DNA from: a virus
Virus genome (UHGV): UHGV-0189314
Length of the DNA: 27,150 nucleotides
Reading direction: 5' to 3' (one strand)
Each line of letters begins with the position of its first letter. Within the stretch, counting starts at the first letter, position 1. Below are positions 631-21,274 of the stretch, in pieces. A program made the translations under genes and the position numbers. A model generated the notes under the pieces. That model was given only the letters and a program-made list of their open reading frames with translations, ran no database searches and had not been told where the DNA came from.

Positions 631-726
631 AGTAAGCATCATAAATGGTTTAAATTTTCAGATTAATAATAATTTTAGATAAGCTTAATTTTATTTCTTC
701 ACGACATATCCTGCGCACATCAAATA

Positions 727-767
727 ACGCCCCATAAAAGGCATCTGCGGTGTTTTTAATGGGGCGT
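727..767 (+). promoter_or_regulatory. 9-bp inverted repeat ACGCCCCAT / ATGGGGCGT with 23-nt loop, upstream of holin
   Basis: Arms at 727-735 and 759-767 are exact reverse complements; followed by AGTTTTTA. Possible RNA structure or protein-binding palindrome. Confidence 0.35.
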
Positions 768-776
768 AGTTTTTAC

Positions 777-802
777 GGGCCGCTGGTGGCCCTTTTTTAT
801 TT
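777..802 (+). terminator. Intrinsic terminator-like hairpin (GGGCC-GCTGGT-GGCCC) + TTTTTTATTT, 15 nt upstream of the holin start
   Basis: 5-bp GC stem, 6-nt loop, T-tract 793-802; RBS CAGGAG at 805-810 and ATG at 818 follow. Position is analogous to lambda tR' ahead of S. Confidence 0.5.
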
Positions 803-817
803 ACAGGAGAAAAAAGT

Positions 818-1210
818 ATGTCTGAACCCTTATCCGGTTCCGGCGCAGCTGTGGCGCTTGGTGGGGCGACGGTATTCGGGCTGTTTACCGGAACGGATTT
901 CGGGATTGTGTTTGGTGCGTTCGCCGGGGCGTTATTTGTGGCAACGATGCCGCAGGCGCTTTCAGCCTGGCGTGTGGCGGCGCATTTTCTGGTGTCGTTC
1001 ATTATCGGCGTGCTGGGCGCAGAGGTTCTGGCATCCGGGCTGGTAAAGCATACAGAGTTTGACGGTGCACCTGTCGACGCATTGTGTGCAGTACTGGTGT
1101 CAGTGGTGTCGGTGAAGATTCTGTCGTTCATCCACCAGCAGGATATCGCATCACTGGTGTCCGGCCTGTTCTCACGCCTGCGGGGCGGAGGAGACGGCAA
1201 TGTTAAGTAA
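818..1210 (+). CDS. Holin-like multi-pass membrane protein (130 aa)
   Basis: RBS CAGGAG 8 nt upstream. Three to four Gly/Ala-rich hydrophobic segments (GAAVALGGATVFGLFTG, GIVFGAFAGALFVA, FLVSFIIGVLGAEVLASGLV, LCAVLVSVVSVKILSF). First gene of a three-gene block ending in an endolysin, overlapping the next gene by 11 nt. Confidence 0.55.
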   Translation: MSEPLSGSGAAVALGGATVFGLFTGTDFGIVFGAFAGALFVATMPQALSAWRVAAHFLVSFIIGVLGAEVLASGLVKHTEFDGAPVDALCAVLVSVVSVKILSFIHQQDIASLVSGLFSRLRGGGDGNVK

Positions 1211-1478
1211 CCTTCCGGGATTGCTGAATGTGGCGTTATGCACGGTTATCGTGCTGACGCTCTTTTTTTATCGTCGCCGTGATTCCAGACATAAACCGCT
1301 GATGTCATGGCTGGCCTGGCTGCTGATGCTGCTTTATGGCTTTGTTCCACTCAGCTATCTGTGCGGTCGCCCGTTAGCGGCGAACTGGCTGGCGGTAGGG
1401 CTTAATCTGCTGTTCTGCGTGCTGGTGATTTGCGCACGCGGGAACGTTTCAAAAATCCTTGTATTACGAAGGCGCTGA
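1200..1478 (+). CDS. Class-I-holin-like membrane protein (92 aa; holin or antiholin partner)
   Basis: RBS GGAGGAG 6 nt upstream. Three predicted TM helices and a basic C-terminus (KILVLRRR) as in lambda-S-type holins. Stop at 1476-1478 sits 1 nt before the endolysin ATG. Confidence 0.55.
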   Translation: MLSNLPGLLNVALCTVIVLTLFFYRRRDSRHKPLMSWLAWLLMLLYGFVPLSYLCGRPLAANWLAVGLNLLFCVLVICARGNVSKILVLRRR

Positions 1479-1479
1479 T

Positions 1480-2025
1480 ATGAAGTCGAAAGATGAAATT
1501 TTTGACGAAGTTCTGGGAAAAGAGGCCGGTTACGTCAATCACCCGGATGATAAAGGTGGTCCGACTAAATGGGGAATTACTGAAAAAGTTGCCCGTGCGC
1601 ACGGATATCAGGGTGATATGTGTAACCTGACACGCGCTCAGGCGCTGGAAATACTTGAAGCGGACTACTGGTACGGACCACGATTCGACCAGATTGCCAG
1701 CCTGTCTCCTGATATTGCCGCAGAGCTGTGTGACACGGGCGTGAACATGGGGCCAACCGTGGCGTCAAAAATGCTTCAACGCTGGCTGAACGTTTTCAAC
1801 CTGCGCGGGAAACTGTATCCGGATATGGATGCAGATGGACGCATCGGACCGCGTACCATCAATGCGTTACGGGCATATCTGCAAAATCGTGGCAGGGATG
1901 GAGAGCTGGTAATGCTGACCGCGCTGAACTGTACGCAGGGTGACCGCTATCTGGAGTTGGCAGAGAAGCGCGAGGCTAACGAGTCGTTTGTCTACGGCTG
2001 GATGAAAGAGCGCGTGGTGGTTTAA
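1480..2025 (+). CDS. Endolysin: GH108-type muramidase domain + peptidoglycan-binding domain
   Basis: N-terminus LGKEAGYVNHPDDKGGPTKWGIT is the GH108 catalytic-Glu region (E-x-G-Y motif) and the C-terminal half resembles the PG_binding_3 domain of TtsA-like / phage endolysins (recalled, not searched). ATG at 1480 preferred over the ORF-track start at 1459. Confidence 0.85.
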   Translation: MKSKDEIFDEVLGKEAGYVNHPDDKGGPTKWGITEKVARAHGYQGDMCNLTRAQALEILEADYWYGPRFDQIASLSPDIAAELCDTGVNMGPTVASKMLQRWLNVFNLRGKLYPDMDADGRIGPRTINALRAYLQNRGRDGELVMLTALNCTQGDRYLELAEKREANESFVYGWMKERVVV

Positions 2026-2250
2026 AAACTGACACTGAAGTGCTGAACACCCTCAACTCATGCAGGTTCTTTTCTGGGGTTACGATAGTCGCAAGCATGG
2101 GCAATAGCGCCAGATGGTAAAAAGCAAAACCCCGGCTGCGGGAACAGTCCGGGATTTTTGGTTTTCACGCCAAAGAGGAAATTGTGATCAGTGAGTACGG
2201 AGAAAATCCTCTTGGGAAAGTATAAAAGATTCTTTTTGAGGTTGTCCATT

Positions 2251-2364
2251 ATGAAAGGCATAGAAGTTGAAACTCCCGCGAGTCTTGATTTGACAAGGGC
2301 TGCGGCCTTTGCAATTCGCCTTGTAGCAGTCGCTATTCTGATTTGGGCTGTGCGTTGGTGGTGA
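2251..2364 (+). CDS. Small hypothetical membrane protein (37 aa, C-terminal TM helix)
   Basis: MKGIEVETPASLDLTRAAAFAIRLVAVAILIWAVRWW read in frame; below the ORF-track cutoff. Stop TGA at 2362-2364 is 1 nt before the next ORF's ATG. Weak RBS. Confidence 0.3.
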   Translation: MKGIEVETPASLDLTRAAAFAIRLVAVAILIWAVRWW

Positions 2365-2365
2365 T

Positions 2366-2548
2366 ATGACACGAAAACACTGGACACACAGAATGCCGCG
2401 AACGGCGGCGAAATGGGCACTGGTAGCGATACTGGTGCCTTTTTTATTGGTGGGATGTGTCAGCCTGGATAAAGCGCGCCAGCTTTTCGATACAGCTTCA
2501 CAGGTCTGCAAAATTGTCGACAGTGTCCAGCAGTGTATGCAGAACTGA
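2366..2548 (+). CDS. Small putative lipoprotein (lipobox LLVG-C); alternative start at 2393
   Basis: Signal peptide: basic n-region, hydrophobic WALVAILVPFLLVG, then Cys. The 30-aa mature part CVSLDKARQLFDTASQVCKIVDSVQQCMQN has 3 Cys and no prolines, so it is not a typical Rz1-type o-spanin. Confidence 0.4.
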   Translation: MTRKHWTHRMPRTAAKWALVAILVPFLLVGCVSLDKARQLFDTASQVCKIVDSVQQCMQN

Positions 2549-2878
2549 TAGACTGTGAGAGCAGAATATTTTGCTGAAAAATAAAAGACGCGTCGGCATC
2601 CGGAAAGCGTAGAGTTCTGCTACGTGTGCCAATTTTATCTTATTCATTCTAAATCTTGCCAAATCAAATGGAGCTTTGCTCAACTGCCCGGGTGGGAAGG
2701 GGCATTAAAACACGGGAAAATTATGTGGAAATCTACAGGAGTCAAGTTAATCACCGTATTGATTGACGGCAAACCACAATACTCACTTATTGAAATGAGC
2801 GGTCAGCATGCTTGTTTGGTTCGTGAGTAACAGGCATTACAGCAGTCCTCTCTCACTGAAGGGGGCTGCTGTAATGTG

Positions 2879-3085
2879 TTAGCTGTTTTTTATGAATCCG
2901 TTGACGACCCATCCGACAAATCTGAGAACACCATATATCAGCAAGGCACATGTCAGTGAAGTCAATATATCAAGCAGTGAGAAGCCTTGCGTATCTGTTG
3001 GTGAAAATAAAAGACCAAAGATGAACACCAGTGTAGCCAGCAGAATGCCCAGTCTATGGAACCCGTTCGAAATAGTGTTTTGCAT
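2879..3085 (-). CDS. Small two-TM membrane protein (68 aa) between lysis genes and cos; possible moron
   Basis: Minus-strand ORF with two hydrophobic helices (LGILLATLVFIFGLLF and LTSLTCALLIYGVLRFVGWVV). Occupies the position and orientation of bor in lambda, but has no lipobox. Confidence 0.35.
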   Translation of the reverse strand: MQNTISNGFHRLGILLATLVFIFGLLFSPTDTQGFSLLDILTSLTCALLIYGVLRFVGWVVNGFIKNS

Positions 3086-3255
3086 TTTTGTTTTCCGTAT
3101 CAGGTTGTAATGGTTTAGTTATTTTAGCATCTGGATAATGAGGTTCTAATCGTCTGGATATACCGGAAGCGATGGGGGGCGTTTGTTGAGTCTGATATTT
3201 ATTAAAATGATAACTTTTTCTCATTTTTACGGGTCCTTTCCAGAATCCGAAACAC

Positions 3256-3269
3256 CGGGGGTCGGTGGA
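3256..3269 (+). other. cosN-like cohesive-end site (approximate)
   Basis: GGGGGTCGGTGGA-CGCGCAAAAACG-CGCTATTTATGAGATTTTTT parallels lambda cosN and flank GGGCGGCGACCT-CGCGGGTTTT-CGCTATTTATGAAAATTTT (recalled). The CGCTATTTATGA block is identical, and the site lies ~220 bp upstream of the Nu1 start, as in lambda. Confidence 0.5.
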
Positions 3270-3309
3270 CGCGCAAAAACGCGCTATTTATGAGATTTTT
3301 TGAGGGGGT

Positions 3310-3455
3310 GGTTGTTGTTTAATTGTTTGTTATATCTCATTGATAAGTAAGAATAAACAGAAATAAATACAACAACCTGATGATGCTTTTTGATGTGATC
3401 GATGTATGAAATATAAATAAAATCAAATGGTTTCGTAAAAATACAAGGTTGTTGT
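3310..3455 (+). promoter_or_regulatory. cosB-like region with three copies of GGTTGTTGT (R-like terminase small-subunit binding repeats)
   Basis: GGTTGTTGT at 3310-3318 (+), its complement ACAACAACC at 3369-3377, and GGTTGTTGT at 3447-3455 (+); AT-rich spacers. Mirrors the lambda R3/R2/R1 layout between cosN and Nu1. Confidence 0.45.
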
Positions 3456-3487
3456 ATCGTTTTTTATCGATGGCTTATGGAGAGGAG

Positions 3488-3994
3488 ATGGCCTGTTTAT
3501 TGAATAAAAGCGATATGGCCTCCTCCATCGGTATATCCGTTCAGGCATTTGATAAATGGGGCGTTCCTCCTGTTGAGCGTCGGGGAAGGGAAGTTTTTTA
3601 TGATGTTAAAACCGTGCTGGAAATCGATCGCGAGCGACGACAGCACAATCAGAGAGCACCTGATGACGGGAGTGATCTGGAGGAAAGATTACTCCGGGCC
3701 AGAACTGAACTGACGGAAGAACAGGCCGTAGCTCAAAAACTTAAAAATCAGGTAACCGAAGGTAAGCTCATCGATTCAGAGTTCTGTGTTTTCGCCCTCA
3801 GCAAACTGGCGATGGCATTGTCCAGTACGCTTGATTCCATTCCTTTATCCATGCAGCGACAGTTCCCGGATTTAACCCCGCGTCATATTGATTATCTGAA
3901 AACCCTTATCGCAAAAGGAGCGAATCAGTGTGCGCGGGCAGGGGATAAATTGCCGGAGTTACTCGATGAATATATCCAGACAACAACTGAATAA
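3488..3994 (+). CDS. nu1: Terminase small subunit (lambda Nu1-like)
   Basis: RBS GGAGAGGAG then ATG at 3488. C-terminal FCVFALSKLAMALSSTLDSIPLSMQRQFPDLTPRHIDYLK...LPELLDEYIQ aligns with lambda Nu1 ...FCTFVLSRIAGEIASILDGLPLSVQRRFPELENRHVDFLK...IPGLLSEYIE (recalled). 3' end overlaps the A start, as in lambda. Confidence 0.85.
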   Translation: MACLLNKSDMASSIGISVQAFDKWGVPPVERRGREVFYDVKTVLEIDRERRQHNQRAPDDGSDLEERLLRARTELTEEQAVAQKLKNQVTEGKLIDSEFCVFALSKLAMALSSTLDSIPLSMQRQFPDLTPRHIDYLKTLIAKGANQCARAGDKLPELLDEYIQTTTE

Positions 3995-5882
3995 TATGAT
4001 GCTCGCCGTCACAACCGCATTACAGCCACTGATAAGGGCACTGCCGGTGACGCCGGTTGAGTGGGCTGATCAAAATTATTATCTGCCCAAAGAGTCGTCA
4101 TACGGTGAGGGGGAATGGAAAACCCTGCCGTTCCAGGTCGCCATCATGAACAGCATGGGTAATGACCGGATCCGTACTGTTAATCTGATTAAATCAGCGC
4201 GCGTGGGTTATACCAAAATGCTGTTGGGCGTGATCGGGTATTTTATTGAGCATAAATCCCGTAGCAGTCTGCTTTTTCAGCCGACAGATTCTGCAGCTGA
4301 AGATTTTATGAAAGCGCATGTGGAAGCTACATTGCGGGATGTTCCCTGCCTTAAAGCGTTGTCTCCATGGCTGGGCAAAAAACATCGTGACAACACGCTC
4401 ACTCTGAAGCGTTTTTCCTCCGGTGTGGGGTTCTGGTGCCTGGGCGGTGCCGCAGCTAAAAACTACCGTGAAAAATCTGTGGATGTGGTCTGCTATGACG
4501 AACTCTCCTCGTTTGAACCGGATGTGGAAAAAGAAGGCTCGCCGACGCTGCTTGGCGATAAACGTATCGAAGGCTCGGTATGGCCTAAATCCATACGCGG
4601 CTCAACGCCAAAAATTAAAGGCTCCTGCCAGATTGAGAAAGCCGCGAATGAATCTGCGCATTTCATGCGGTTTTATGTCCCTTGCCCTCATTGCGGGAAG
4701 GCCCAGTATCTGAAGTTTGGCGATGATGCGACGCCGTTTGGCCTGAAATGGGATAAGGGTAAACCGGAAACGGTGTATTACCTGTGTGAACATAATGGCT
4801 GTGTGATCCGGCAGTCGGAACTTGACCAGAGCGACGGACGCTGGATTTGTGACAATACCGGGATGTGGACGCGTGATGGCCTTACATTTTACAGCGCCGG
4901 TGATGAGGAGATACCGCCACCGCGCTCAGTCACGTACCACGTGTGGACAGCGTACAGTCCGTTCACCACCTGGGTGCAGATTATCTACGACTGGCTGGAT
5001 GCGCTGAAGGACCCGAACGGCGTCAAGACGTTTATTAATACCACGCTCGGGGAGCCCTATGAAGAGGCTGTGGCAGAAAAACTGAGCTTTGAGTTGTTGC
5101 TGGAAAAAGTCTGCCACTATGGTGCGCAGGTTCCCCTGCGGGTGGTTTACCTTACCGCCGGGATCGACTCCCAGAAAGATCGCTATGAAATTTATGTCTG
5201 GGGCTGGGCTCCCGGCGAAGAAGCCTTTCTGATTGATAAGCAAATTATCATGGGGCGACCGGAAGACGAGGACACCCTGAAACGTGTTGATACGGTGATC
5301 CGGAAAAAATACCGCCATGCTGACGGTACTGAAATTTCCATTTCCCGCGTCTGCTGGGATACCGGTGGTATCGACCAGGACATTGTGTATCAGCGTTCCA
5401 GAAAACACGGCACTTTTTTTGTGCTTCCCATAAAAGGGGCATCGGTGTACGGCAAGCCGGTGATCACCATGCCCAAAAAGCGCAACCAGCGTGGCGTGTT
5501 TCTGTGTGAGGTGGGTTCCGACACCGTCAAGGAAATGCTGTATGCCCGTTTTGCCCTGCCGGTGGTTCCTGCCAGTGAAGCCGCTCCGTATACCTTCCGT
5601 TTTCCGGATAACCCGGACATTTTTTCGGAAGAAGAAGCACGTCAAATCGTGGCGGAAGAACTGGTGGAAAAGGTGGTTAATGGCAGGGTGAAACTGCTGT
5701 GGGATAAAAAAGGGCGACGCAACGAAGCCCTCGACTGCCTGGTATATGCCTATGCTGCCCTGCGTATTTCAGTACAACGATGGCAACTGGACCTTGAGGC
5801 ACTGGCCAGGGCACGAAGAGACGAGCAGGATGAGGATGATATGAGTCTGGAAGAAATTGCGGCTGCACTGAGTGGAGGATAA
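3966..5882 (+). CDS. A: Terminase large subunit (lambda gpA-like)
   Basis: Near-colinear match to lambda gpA throughout (MNISRQQ..., EWADQNYYLPKES, WCLGGAAAKNYREKSVDVVCYDEL, YVPCPHCG, VYGKP, RRNEALDC). Start at ATG 3966, not the ORF-track 3930. Confidence 0.95.
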   Translation: MNISRQQLNNMMLAVTTALQPLIRALPVTPVEWADQNYYLPKESSYGEGEWKTLPFQVAIMNSMGNDRIRTVNLIKSARVGYTKMLLGVIGYFIEHKSRSSLLFQPTDSAAEDFMKAHVEATLRDVPCLKALSPWLGKKHRDNTLTLKRFSSGVGFWCLGGAAAKNYREKSVDVVCYDELSSFEPDVEKEGSPTLLGDKRIEGSVWPKSIRGSTPKIKGSCQIEKAANESAHFMRFYVPCPHCGKAQYLKFGDDATPFGLKWDKGKPETVYYLCEHNGCVIRQSELDQSDGRWICDNTGMWTRDGLTFYSAGDEEIPPPRSVTYHVWTAYSPFTTWVQIIYDWLDALKDPNGVKTFINTTLGEPYEEAVAEKLSFELLLEKVCHYGAQVPLRVVYLTAGIDSQKDRYEIYVWGWAPGEEAFLIDKQIIMGRPEDEDTLKRVDTVIRKKYRHADGTEISISRVCWDTGGIDQDIVYQRSRKHGTFFVLPIKGASVYGKPVITMPKKRNQRGVFLCEVGSDTVKEMLYARFALPVVPASEAAPYTFRFPDNPDIFSEEEARQIVAEELVEKVVNGRVKLLWDKKGRRNEALDCLVYAYAALRISVQRWQLDLEALARARRDEQDEDDMSLEEIAAALSGG

Positions 5883-19641: not shown

Positions 19642-21274
19642 CCTTAAAGCGAATATCAGGATCGGCGGCACGATAGATCCGTCGTGGAAAAAATCGGTAG
19701 ATGGACTGAAGCACGGATTATCAGGGGCAACGCAGGAAGTGGCCCGCCTGACACGCCAGCAGGACGTACTGAAACGAAAAATTCAGGCTGGCGTACTGGC
19801 TGGACAGGATATTACTGAACTGCGAAAGCAGTATGAAAAGCTGGGCAAAAAAATTCATGATGCTACCGGAGAGCAGGACAAATTTAACCGTAAGCTGGCT
19901 CGTGCTGAACGTCTGGAACGCTGGAAAGGGCGGGCCGGGACCGTTCTTAAAACCGGGCTGGGGCTTTCTGTTGGTTCGGGGTTGACGCTGGCAGCGGGCA
20001 CTACCGCTGTGCTTAACCGGAATACGGAAACGGCAGAGCGGGCAGGGATAGCCCGCAGTTACGGGGTGGATTATGAAACCTATGCGGCATGGGATTCACT
20101 TGCCCGACTGATGGGGCTGAACGGTGAAAACATCGGTGATCTGTTTGAGGAGTACCGGAACAAGGTTTTTGACGATGATAATGGTGCCACGGACAAAGGA
20201 GCCATTCAGGAGGTATTCGGTAAACTGGGGCTGAAAGCGGGCGTAATGGCCGGAAAAAGCAACCAGGAGCAGGTCGAATTTTTATTTGATCGCTTACTGC
20301 AGGTGGAGAATGAACAGGTGGCAGCCGGGATGGCAGATGCGCTGTTTGGTGGTGAGGCCAATAAAATTCTGACCTGGATGCGTCTGTCAGGAAAAACTTA
20401 CCGGGAGCTTATCAGTGAGCAGAAACGCTATAACCTGGTGACAAAGGCAGGGGCAGATGGCGCAGTTCAGGGGCATATGGCGCTGTCAAATCTCAGTAAT
20501 GTTCTGAGTTCGTCCATTGATGAAATCAGCGGGCAACTGGGTAAGGAGCTGGCACCACATATTCAACAGGTGACGGATGACCTTGCGGCCTGGTTTAAGT
20601 ATGGTGGACTGGAAAAAATCCGGGCATTTATCCGTGATGATGCCCTGCCGGCGCTGATCGACATGGCAGCATGGATGTGGAAATTCGGAAAGGTTCTGGC
20701 TGGAATCACACAAAAAGCCATTGAGTGGGGGTTAGCGGATGATCCACGAGAGGACCGGCGAGAGGTGCTGGAATATCTGGCAAAAATGGGGGCGCCGGAG
20801 CTGGCGAGAGCGGTGGCGCAGAAAAACGGTCAGGGAGAATGGTTTGATGAACTGCTCAGGCAAAATCCGGACCTGACGAAACAGGTTGTACAGGCTTATA
20901 AAGACACCCGCGGTTATCTCCCCTGGAATCATGACGATAAAAAGTTTGATGCATTTCTCGACCCTTTGCTGGGGCCGAAAGAAGAACCTGATTTTAAGGC
21001 GATAAAAGAGAAATCCCGCACCTACATTGATGGACTTCATGCAGCAGATTCGGGGCAGGGTAATTCGGATCCCCTCTCAGCTCTTCAGTATACACCCGGC
21101 AGTATCAGCCAGGTGGAAGTAAAACCCACGTATCAGATACGGGCGGAATTCAACATCACCCAGAAGCCAGGCGAGGATGCCGGACAACTGGCAGACAGGG
21201 TGACGAAAAATCTGGGTGATATTCATTTTGGTCAGCGTTCCCGTATGACTGATGGTTATGAATCCTGGGGGTGA
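19622..21274 (+). CDS. T: Tail tape-measure protein (P2 gpT position; 550 aa)
   Basis: Large, predicted alpha-helical protein directly after E/E' and before U; call is mainly positional. Confidence 0.7.
   Translation: MATVGDNLKANIRIGGTIDPSWKKSVDGLKHGLSGATQEVARLTRQQDVLKRKIQAGVLAGQDITELRKQYEKLGKKIHDATGEQDKFNRKLARAERLERWKGRAGTVLKTGLGLSVGSGLTLAAGTTAVLNRNTETAERAGIARSYGVDYETYAAWDSLARLMGLNGENIGDLFEEYRNKVFDDDNGATDKGAIQEVFGKLGLKAGVMAGKSNQEQVEFLFDRLLQVENEQVAAGMADALFGGEANKILTWMRLSGKTYRELISEQKRYNLVTKAGADGAVQGHMALSNLSNVLSSSIDEISGQLGKELAPHIQQVTDDLAAWFKYGGLEKIRAFIRDDALPALIDMAAWMWKFGKVLAGITQKAIEWGLADDPREDRREVLEYLAKMGAPELARAVAQKNGQGEWFDELLRQNPDLTKQVVQAYKDTRGYLPWNHDDKKFDAFLDPLLGPKEEPDFKAIKEKSRTYIDGLHAADSGQGNSDPLSALQYTPGSISQVEVKPTYQIRAEFNITQKPGEDAGQLADRVTKNLGDIHFGQRSRMTDGYESWG

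Follow-up and report, generated by a model that had tools for sequence, protein, structure and literature searches.

LP60, a short prolipoprotein encoded after the endolysin of phiP27-like prophages, as a candidate stand-alone outer-membrane disruptor

To our knowledge, the disruptin of phage phiKT is the only demonstrated alternative to spanins. This disruptin, gp28, is described as a cationic peptide that replaces spanins (bioRxiv 10.1101/515445). Spanins were curated manually in 677 phages by Kongari et al. 2018 (PMC6139136), and 13% of these phages had no identifiable spanin. In the same catalogue phage phiP27 is a singleton with a 'separated' two-component spanin, composed of an inner-membrane i-spanin of 64 amino acids (aa; 20348-20542) and an outer-membrane o-spanin of 51 aa (20706-20861), the latter with a mature part of 30 aa and 83% predicted helix. 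Together the two proteins have 62 periplasmic residues, which makes this pair the shortest of 528. We analyzed a related locus in a stretch of viral DNA of 27,150 nucleotides (nt) from genome UHGV-0189314, hereafter the window. Positions 818-2548 hold five genes on the plus strand, all of them open reading frames (ORFs) at the coordinates listed in Table 1. They encode two holin-like proteins, an endolysin, a small membrane protein that we call S50 and a 60-aa prolipoprotein that we call LP60. Judging from its sequence and its neighbors, LP60 is probably a stand-alone outer-membrane disruptor that acts in place of a spanin complex.

The o-spanin listed for phiP27 is a homolog of LP60, 88% identical and located in the same position after the endolysin. 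An outer-membrane role for this family is therefore not wholly new. The family has been touched on only by a supplementary table of that survey, where it is paired with a doubtful partner. In the phiP27 record (NC_003356, L095) the GenBank coding sequence L32 (20630-20785) is in the wrong frame, and the real lipoprotein gene is 20679-20861. The phiP27 i-spanin begins with TTG and lies antisense to an ORF of 90 aa, which has more the look of a genuine protein. The i-spanin ORF is located within a stretch of 485 nt between the endolysin and LP60, an insert that is found only in phiP27 among the loci examined. A search of IMG/VR gave 267 loci encoding LP60, of which the best 80 were used for synteny counts. 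Neither the i-spanin ORF nor the 90-aa ORF antisense to it was matched in the window or in any of these 80 loci. Because it is an antisense TTG ORF that is absent from 80 related loci, the i-spanin call is unsupported, and from these sequence comparisons the published assignment is probably a mis-call.

Lipobox ORFs were searched from every start codon in all six frames of the window, the 12 kb upstream of it, the phiP27 genome and the 80 loci. In the window and the 12 kb upstream, LP60 was the sole credible ORF. The complete phiP27 genome gave the LP60 homolog and an unrelated 275-aa lipoprotein of the early region, with no spanin pair, and no ORF near its lysis genes combines an N-terminal transmembrane segment with a periplasmic domain. 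Within about 6 kb of LP60 in the 80 loci, Bor (8 loci) was the only other recurrent lipobox ORF, and none of the conserved ORFs had an N-terminal transmembrane segment. Clustering of the 5409 ORFs from these loci left LP60, the two holins and S50 as the only conserved hydrophobic products, and a conserved i-spanin-like ORF was rejected. An earlier note on this DNA, made from the letters alone, had seen no Rz/Rz1-type spanin, and had raised the chances of an o-spanin embedded out of frame and of a canonical i-spanin/o-spanin pair elsewhere in the phage. Its negative observation stands for the window, the 12 kb upstream, the remaining prophage and the phiP27 genome. The six-frame scan gave no embedded o-spanin besides LP60 and the eight Bor genes, and a canonical pair was looked for across the prophage and was not found. 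Thus no i-spanin gene cognate to LP60 is present in the window, the prophage, phiP27 or the 80 loci.

LP60 shares the traits of its family, phrog_7528: 44-85 aa, an LLVGC lipobox, a short helical mature part, two Cys in a C-x8-C arrangement and a gene directly after the endolysin. Its signal peptide has 30 residues: the basic n-region (M.RKHWTHR.PR) is conserved, the h-region is invariant, and the lipobox is LLVG|C. RefSeq places the start at 2393 (Met10). Residues 1-9 (M.RKHWTHR) are conserved in an alignment of 19 family members, while Met10 is often Thr, Val or Ile in relatives, so the start is taken as 2366. The mature protein has 30 residues, three Cys and no Pro, as had been read before from the letters, and the 60-aa form is the one that begins at 2366. 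Two of the Cys form the C-x8-C pair, and all three are invariant across the alignments. As in o-spanins, a lipobox is present in a product of the lysis cassette, with Val at position +2 and no Asp, and sorting of LP60 to the outer membrane is therefore expected. LP60 would be lipidated, sorted to the outer membrane and active in lysis. It falls short of o-spanin length, with 29 residues after the putatively lipidated Cys.

The mature part is helical in an AlphaFold2 (AF2) model, and the phiP27 homolog is also helical by Jpred, as listed in the Kongari tables. The AF2 model, one long helix with pLDDT 64, is of too little confidence and length to support a fold search. The helix is amphipathic (hydrophobic moment, muH, 0.40 over 29 residues), a value reached by 0.4% of shuffles. 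Intermolecular disulfides would be favored, because two Cys nine positions apart lie on opposite faces of a straight helix. Of the 80 copies of the gene, 79 are intact, and it is under purifying selection, with a ratio of nonsynonymous to synonymous polymorphism (pN/pS) of 0.20 that is equal in the n-region, the h-region and the mature part. Searches for remote homology gave no match in Pfam or PADLOC, and in NCBIfam only spanin2_1, with 15 bits against a cut-off of 100 (E = 0.018). A profile search of 1.84 billion representative proteins returned 23 clusters only. The full-length members read from them are short lipoproteins with the LLVGC lipobox and C-x8-C. None of these clusters holds a longer protein matching mature LP60, or one with a C-terminal transmembrane domain.

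The synteny of LP60 is strong. An endolysin lies upstream on the same strand in 77 of the 80 loci (44 of M15 type and 33 of GH108 type); among the other three, two are cut by the contig end and one has an endolysin remnant. Both holin genes, holin_8 and holin_3_7, were found upstream by tblastn in 73 loci. In 31 of the loci examined, the ATG of LP60 is 14-15 nt past the M15 stop, with nothing between. In Yersinia enterocolitica, LP60 is 73% identical and four genes are packed together, with LP60 overlapping the GH108 stop by 4 nt. Of the most distant family members, at about 40% identity, five could be traced to contigs; each follows an endolysin directly (Table 1), and the position is kept across two holin systems and three endolysin families. 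Since the distant cassettes vary in both components, the association is with the place after the endolysin, whatever the holin or endolysin. The hosts are Escherichia coli, Salmonella, Citrobacter, Cronobacter and Yersinia, and inducible toxin-converting phages, for example phiP27 and the phage with Stx2k, are among the carriers of the family.

The position of LP60 is equivalent to that of spanins. When species-representative genomes were scanned with the holin_8 protein, six loci were obtained. LP60 is present in those of Salmonella and Citrobacter. In Enterobacter, holin_8, holin_3_7 and a 208-aa endolysin of a different family are followed by a lambda-type Rz with an embedded Rz1. Leclercia has the same arrangement of holins and endolysin, followed by an overlapped i-spanin/o-spanin pair. 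Such an overlapped pair is also found in Silvania, after holin_8, holin_3_7 and a GH108 endolysin 69% identical to that of the window. The Stx phage GER2 (MG710528, L008) has S, R, an S50 homolog and Rz/Rz1, and carries at 5296-5480 an LP60 pseudogene with three stops and no start. The strongest argument that LP60 does the job of a spanin is that spanins fill its slot in sister cassettes and that LP60 is decayed in GER2.

S50 is a less constant member of the cassette. Its N-terminal part of 28 residues is basic, and its sole transmembrane segment lies at the very end of the protein (…AVRWW-stop); its long form matches phrog_4493, of unknown function (6.6e-23). The earlier note had described a single-transmembrane protein of 37 aa starting at 2251; the single segment was borne out, while the start is most likely 2212, giving 50 aa. 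In the 44 homologs found by motif, the codon at this position is GTG (41), ATG (2) or TTG (1), a GGAG lies 9 nt upstream, and a divergent homolog starts with MRKYK, with ATG at the matching position. The pN/pS was 0.07 in the 37-codon core and 0.71 in the 20 codons upstream, calculated from few sequences. S50 was found in 27 of the 80 LP60 loci by tblastn and in 43 by ORF clustering, which takes in divergent copies. The compact M15 cassettes lack it, as do all distant LP60-family cassettes. In a separate sample, the best 80 S50 loci, S50 precedes LP60 in 79 and Rz/Rz1 in one. Variants of S50 stand before canonical Rz/Rz1 in GER2 and in L186. The S50-Rz junction of GER2 is 1 nt, like the S50-LP60 junction of the window, where the stop at 2364 and the ATG at 2366 are 1 nt apart. 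Because its C-terminal transmembrane segment leaves almost nothing in the periplasm, S50 is excluded as an i-spanin. The most fitting description of S50 is that of an optional accessory in outer-membrane disruption, not of a partner that bridges the periplasm. A joint role of S50 and LP60 as an outer-membrane disruption pair, proposed before, is not obligatory, since LP60 is conserved and S50 is an optional insert. Lcc6 of the Shewanella phage LambdaSo, a small membrane protein of 65 aa that is required for lysis, offers a precedent for such an accessory. In a subset of GH108 cassettes (L040 5662-5996; L098 4662-4996), two other small membrane ORFs lie between endolysin and LP60, a 60-aa divergent relative of S50 (MRKYKLILLRL…) and a 44-aa single-transmembrane protein (MSDSIIKLARILCVVVGLSF…).

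LP60 resembles lambda Rz/Rz1 in its last position in the cassette, its outer-membrane lipoprotein signal and its conserved periplasmic Cys. It differs in having no i-spanin and in its mature part, which has 30 residues and is helical and free of Pro, whereas Rz1 is rich in Pro and unstructured. Compared with the pair listed for phiP27, the window has S50 in the place of the i-spanin, and most cassettes have nothing there. LP60 also recalls the bacteriocin release proteins (Lysis_col) in size and lipobox. These are prolipoproteins of about 45-60 aa with a mature part of about 28-33 residues and a lipobox of LLVGC type. The signal peptide matters to an unusual degree for these proteins, which make the envelope permeable from the periplasmic side. 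Homology to them was rejected, as Pfam Lysis_col gave no match at E <= 1. An hhalign comparison with the presumed sequence of ColE1 Kil aligned only residues 17-33, in the signal peptide. The phiKT disruptin has, as far as we know, no signal sequence. LP60 is like it in being small and amphipathic, and the disruptin type was rejected for LP60 on account of its net charge of 0 and its predicted type II signal peptide. Finally, the u-spanin gp11 of phage T1 is a single product with a lipoprotein signal, encoded by the last lysis gene, as is LP60. However, u-spanins have no periplasmic Cys and are rich in beta structure (Kongari et al. 2018, PMC6139136), while LP60 is predicted to form a helix and has two invariant Cys. 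A u-spanin was rejected because neither LP60 nor any relative in the 23 clusters has a C-terminal hydrophobic segment.

The LP60 gene contains a terminator-like hairpin within its signal-peptide codons (Table 1), with a folding energy of -19 kcal/mol (z = -3.4). Among 17 distinct sequences, some of them from members with about 40% protein identity, 95% of the stem is paired; when the 3' partner was slid by 1-3 columns as a control, pairing fell to 33-62%. Three pairs are changed on both sides, giving a covariation score that was reached by 10 of 500 shuffles. All synonymous changes of the 5' arm in close relatives keep the pairing through G·U, and this stretch has about half the synonymous diversity of the remaining gene. 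In one distant member the register of the hairpin is shifted and its T-tract is poor. These data are suggestive, and not conclusive, of an intrinsic terminator embedded in the coding sequence. Such a hairpin might allow the mature protein to be made from Q-antiterminated transcripts only, or reduce its amount. No promoter of LP60 itself was found by a pattern scan.

Lysis by this cassette could proceed as follows. The holin_8 and holin_3_7 proteins would accumulate in the inner membrane, the three-segment protein as the hole former and holin_8 as its partner or regulator. On triggering of the holin, the soluble GH108 muramidase would reach the periplasm and degrade the peptidoglycan. LP60 would be exported through its type II signal peptide and lipidated at Cys31, which would leave a 29-residue amphipathic helix with two invariant Cys. 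Once the wall is gone, it may destabilize the outer membrane with no phage-encoded partner in the inner membrane. This might occur through disulfide-linked oligomers of the helix that insert into the membrane, or through a route like that of bacteriocin release proteins, via the outer-membrane phospholipase.

Several observations weigh against such a role. We know of no way in which a 30-residue lipoprotein breaches the outer membrane, and spanins are dispensable in many laboratory conditions, so that a phage with no outer-membrane disruptor is conceivable. LP60 has a net charge of 0, whereas the phiKT disruptin is cationic. Its linkage to the endolysin could partly reflect co-inheritance among close prophages, and the argument from decay rests on one phage, GER2. 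In addition, the LT-II prophages Rac-SA53 and SerU-LTIIb (KU052037 and KU052038) have the same holin_8, holin_3_7 and GH108 genes, with proteins 72-92% identical, followed directly by the LT-IIa/b genes; S50 and LP60 are absent. This shows that the cassette can exist without LP60, although these prophages may be defective.

It is unlikely that LP60 is a genuine o-spanin in need of an inner-membrane partner (S50, a holin-family protein or a host protein), with which it would bridge the periplasm and fuse the membranes. The listing of phiP27 as a 'separated' spanin favors this explanation, and so do the translational coupling of S50 to LP60 in the window, the order of the two genes in the S50 sample, the spanin-like conservation of the periplasmic Cys and the weak spanin2_1 match. 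That match, however, is far below its cut-off, and 29 periplasmic residues cannot span the periplasm, the phiP27 pair being already the shortest in the catalogue. As for the partner, the listed i-spanin, antisense to another ORF, occurs in 0 of 80 loci. S50 escapes tblastn in most LP60 cassettes, is missing from the distant ones and has almost no periplasmic part. Neither holin is a specific partner of LP60, because the holin pair also occurs with ordinary spanins and the lipoprotein also with a different holin. The interchange of LP60 with spanins in the slot after the endolysin also bears on whether LP60, S50 or both could act on holin timing or endolysin release, as an antiholin, the Mu releasin or Lcc6 might, and not on the outer membrane: it points to the last step of lysis. 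Small membrane proteins with regulator-type lysis roles do exist, as Lcc6 of LambdaSo, the signal peptide of LP60 is unusually long and conserved, and S50 is basic and membrane-anchored. Nevertheless, a lipoprotein sorted to the outer membrane would be poorly placed to regulate a holin of the inner membrane, and LP60 is found with two unrelated holin systems, which makes a regulatory role very unlikely.

The earlier note had also considered that the last two genes might be unrelated cargo. LP60 would then be a moron-type gene for superinfection exclusion, receptor masking or serum resistance, similar to Cor, Llp or Bor, in phages with no outer-membrane disruptor. The zone between endolysin and cos is indeed an insertion hot spot, where relatives carry LT-II toxin genes, KilA-N proteins, Bor or a 68-aa ORF with two transmembrane segments. 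LP60 is missing in the LT-II prophages, and the phages with no identifiable spanin in the Kongari survey would accommodate this explanation. Yet these inserts fall between endolysin and LP60 or past LP60, while LP60 itself keeps a fixed position on the late strand, downstream of the endolysin in 77 of 80 loci and often 14 nt or less from it, and does so with unrelated holins and endolysins. Sister cassettes have spanins in this slot, LP60 is decayed where Rz/Rz1 is present (GER2), and neither a promoter of its own nor a PADLOC or Pfam match was detected. Cargo is thus quite unlikely, and a stand-alone outer-membrane disruptor in the place of a spanin complex remains the explanation that we favor for LP60.

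Table 1. Features of the lysis region in the window, and distant cassettes with an LP60-family lipoprotein (LP)
Feature	Locus	Position	Strand	Evidence or content
Terminator-like hairpin + T-run	window	777..802	+	pattern scan (GGGCCGCTGGTGGCCC TTTTTTATTT); just 5' of first lysis gene
Phage_holin_8 protein, 130 aa	window	818..1210	+	PF16931 1.5e-21; phrog_198 'holin' 9e-42
Phage_holin_3_7 protein, 92 aa	window	1200..1478	+	PF05449 7e-21; phrog_217 'holin' 7e-37
Endolysin, 181 aa	window	1480..2025	+	Glyco_hydro_108 (residues 8-91) + PG_binding_3 (residues 95-179)
Hairpin + T-tract	window	2130..2165	+	-22.2 kcal/mol, z = -2.7; terminator-like on both strands; between endolysin and S50
S50, 50-aa tail-anchored membrane protein	window	2212..2364	+	alternative starts 2251 (37 aa), 2191 (57 aa)
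LP60, 60-aa prolipoprotein	window	2366..2548	+	phrog_7528 (unknown function) 1.3e-37
Terminator-like element, LP60 codons 17-28	window	2415..2449	+	11-bp stem, GCGA loop, then TTTTTTATT
Distant cassette	L099			lambda-S-type holin (PF05106), M15_4, LP
Distant cassette	L103			lambda-S-type holin, GH108, LP
Distant cassette	L105			lambda-S-type holin, phrog_465 endolysin, LP
Distant cassette	L102			holin_8, holin_3_7, M15_4, LP
Distant cassette	fifth traced member			GH108, LP

The other genes of the cassette are of known types. The 130-aa Phage_holin_8 protein (Pfam score 77.2 bits against a cut-off of 26.4) has 3-4 hydrophobic segments rich in Gly and Ala by hydropathy, and its ATG at 818 is preceded by AGGAG 8 nt upstream. 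By its family match, it is a predicted holin or holin partner (antiholin). The 92-aa Phage_holin_3_7 protein (74.5 bits against 25.4) has three transmembrane segments by hydropathy and a basic C-terminus (…LRRR), and is the likeliest hole-forming holin. For this protein, a further in-frame start lies 5-6 codons upstream in phiP27 and other relatives, among them several IMG/VR loci (M-EEAA-M or M-AEETA-M; L002 4476-4766), a possible dual-start motif. This upstream start is not present in the window copy. The endolysin is 86-89% identical to those of the LT-II prophages, and its two domains score 90.5 bits (Glyco_hydro_108) and 91.1 bits (PG_binding_3), far over the curated Pfam cut-offs. No hydrophobic segment was found in it by hydropathy, and so it has no signal or signal-anchor-release (SAR) domain. 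A large-hole holin is needed, because the endolysin is soluble; this assigns the cassette to the canonical holin pathway and not to that of pinholins and SAR endolysins. PHROGs classes the three genes as holin, holin and endolysin, in agreement with Pfam and with the original description of two holin-like membrane proteins and a GH108 muramidase with a peptidoglycan-binding domain. The same description had the three genes translationally coupled, which agrees with their spacing: the holin genes overlap by 11 nt, and the stop at 1478 is separated from the ATG at 1480 by 1 nt. A search of the literature found nothing experimental on PF16931, PF05449 or phiP27 lysis.

The window matches a phiP27-like prophage of E. 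coli Sx181-0-1, inserted between yjjG and prfC, with 100% identity over the 2.8 kb compared. The prophage has the gene order Q antiterminator, four tRNAs, a hypothetical gene, the five lysis-region genes, and the lambda-type small and large terminase, followed by head genes and then by P2-like baseplate, sheath and tube genes. Its left arm contains early genes, the Dsr1 defense gene and the integrase only. The window spans from the last tRNA (tRNA-Gly, 7-81) to the right end of the prophage. Among 5426 complete E. coli genomes, 619 match parts of positions 700-3500 of the window (2.8 kb), and four hold most of it. As in a canonical holin-endolysin cassette, the holins adjoin the hydrolase, and the genes lie between the late regulator (Q, with the tRNAs) and the terminase. 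The terminator-like hairpin just before the first lysis gene fits a late operon whose transcription depends on Q antitermination. Positions 818-2548 probably contain the whole lysis module of a phiP27-like prophage, which would be transcribed late with the help of Q, and the cassette as a whole is a known type, present in phiP27, the Stx2k phage and the LT-II prophages. The late operon, with Q and tRNAs upstream and a lambda-type terminase downstream, also bears out the preference of the earlier note for plain phage lysis over protein secretion. Secretion of TtsA type was rejected, as the NCBIfam model of holin-associated muramidases (NF040573) gave 67 bits against a cut-off of 240 and the prophage is complete, with head and tail genes.

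Some further features surround the cassette. The tRNA-Gly of the window is the end of the four-tRNA array (Ile, Arg, Thr, Gly) 3' of Q. Positions 235-594 hold a hypothetical ORF of 119 aa; the corresponding slot of phiP27 is occupied by stx2e. Pertussis-like toxin genes lie just 5' of the holin in Rac-SA53 and in a Cronobacter malonaticus prophage (L098). At the other end of the prophage, Dsr1, a sirtuin anti-phage gene, adjoins the integrase (L107 1062-4889 = NZ_CP078137 3485661-3489488). On the minus strand at 2879-3085, between the lysis genes and the terminase and in the position of lambda bor, is an unannotated ORF of 68 aa with two hydrophobic segments. Relatives of it were found by tblastn in 7 of the 80 IMG/VR loci, and in Citrobacter braakii (L091) at 62% identity. 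It has no significant family match, the best Pfam hit being DUF5957 with E = 0.025, below the cut-off. Positions 3225-3300, 5' of the Nu1-like small terminase, contain ACGGGTCCTTTCC … GGGGGTCGGTGGAC … CGCGCTATTTATGA, which bears a possible resemblance to lambda cos, though blastn of 3150-3480 gave no lambda match. The sequence PP818812 ('Actinobacillus phage vB_Apl-pPE4', L005) has 86% nucleotide identity to the lysis region and an unannotated LP60 that is 90% identical at the protein level. Its Actinobacillus host seems doubtful, because all other matches of the cassette are enterobacterial.

Of the steps of phage lysis, disruption of the outer membrane is the least understood, and the LP60 family offers a well-defined candidate for a second alternative to spanins. 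More tentatively, a lipoprotein of 30 residues that acts without a partner could be a third kind of outer-membrane disruptor beside spanins and disruptins, one that has repeatedly replaced two-component spanins in the lysis cassettes of enterobacteria and is gated by an intragenic hairpin to Q-antiterminated transcripts; we hold this larger view as possible, with less confidence than the role of LP60 itself. Since the same cassette releases Stx2e, Stx2k and LT-II, the manner in which LP60 would open the outer membrane bears on toxin release. If true, a 30-residue outer-membrane-active lipopeptide may also be of practical interest.

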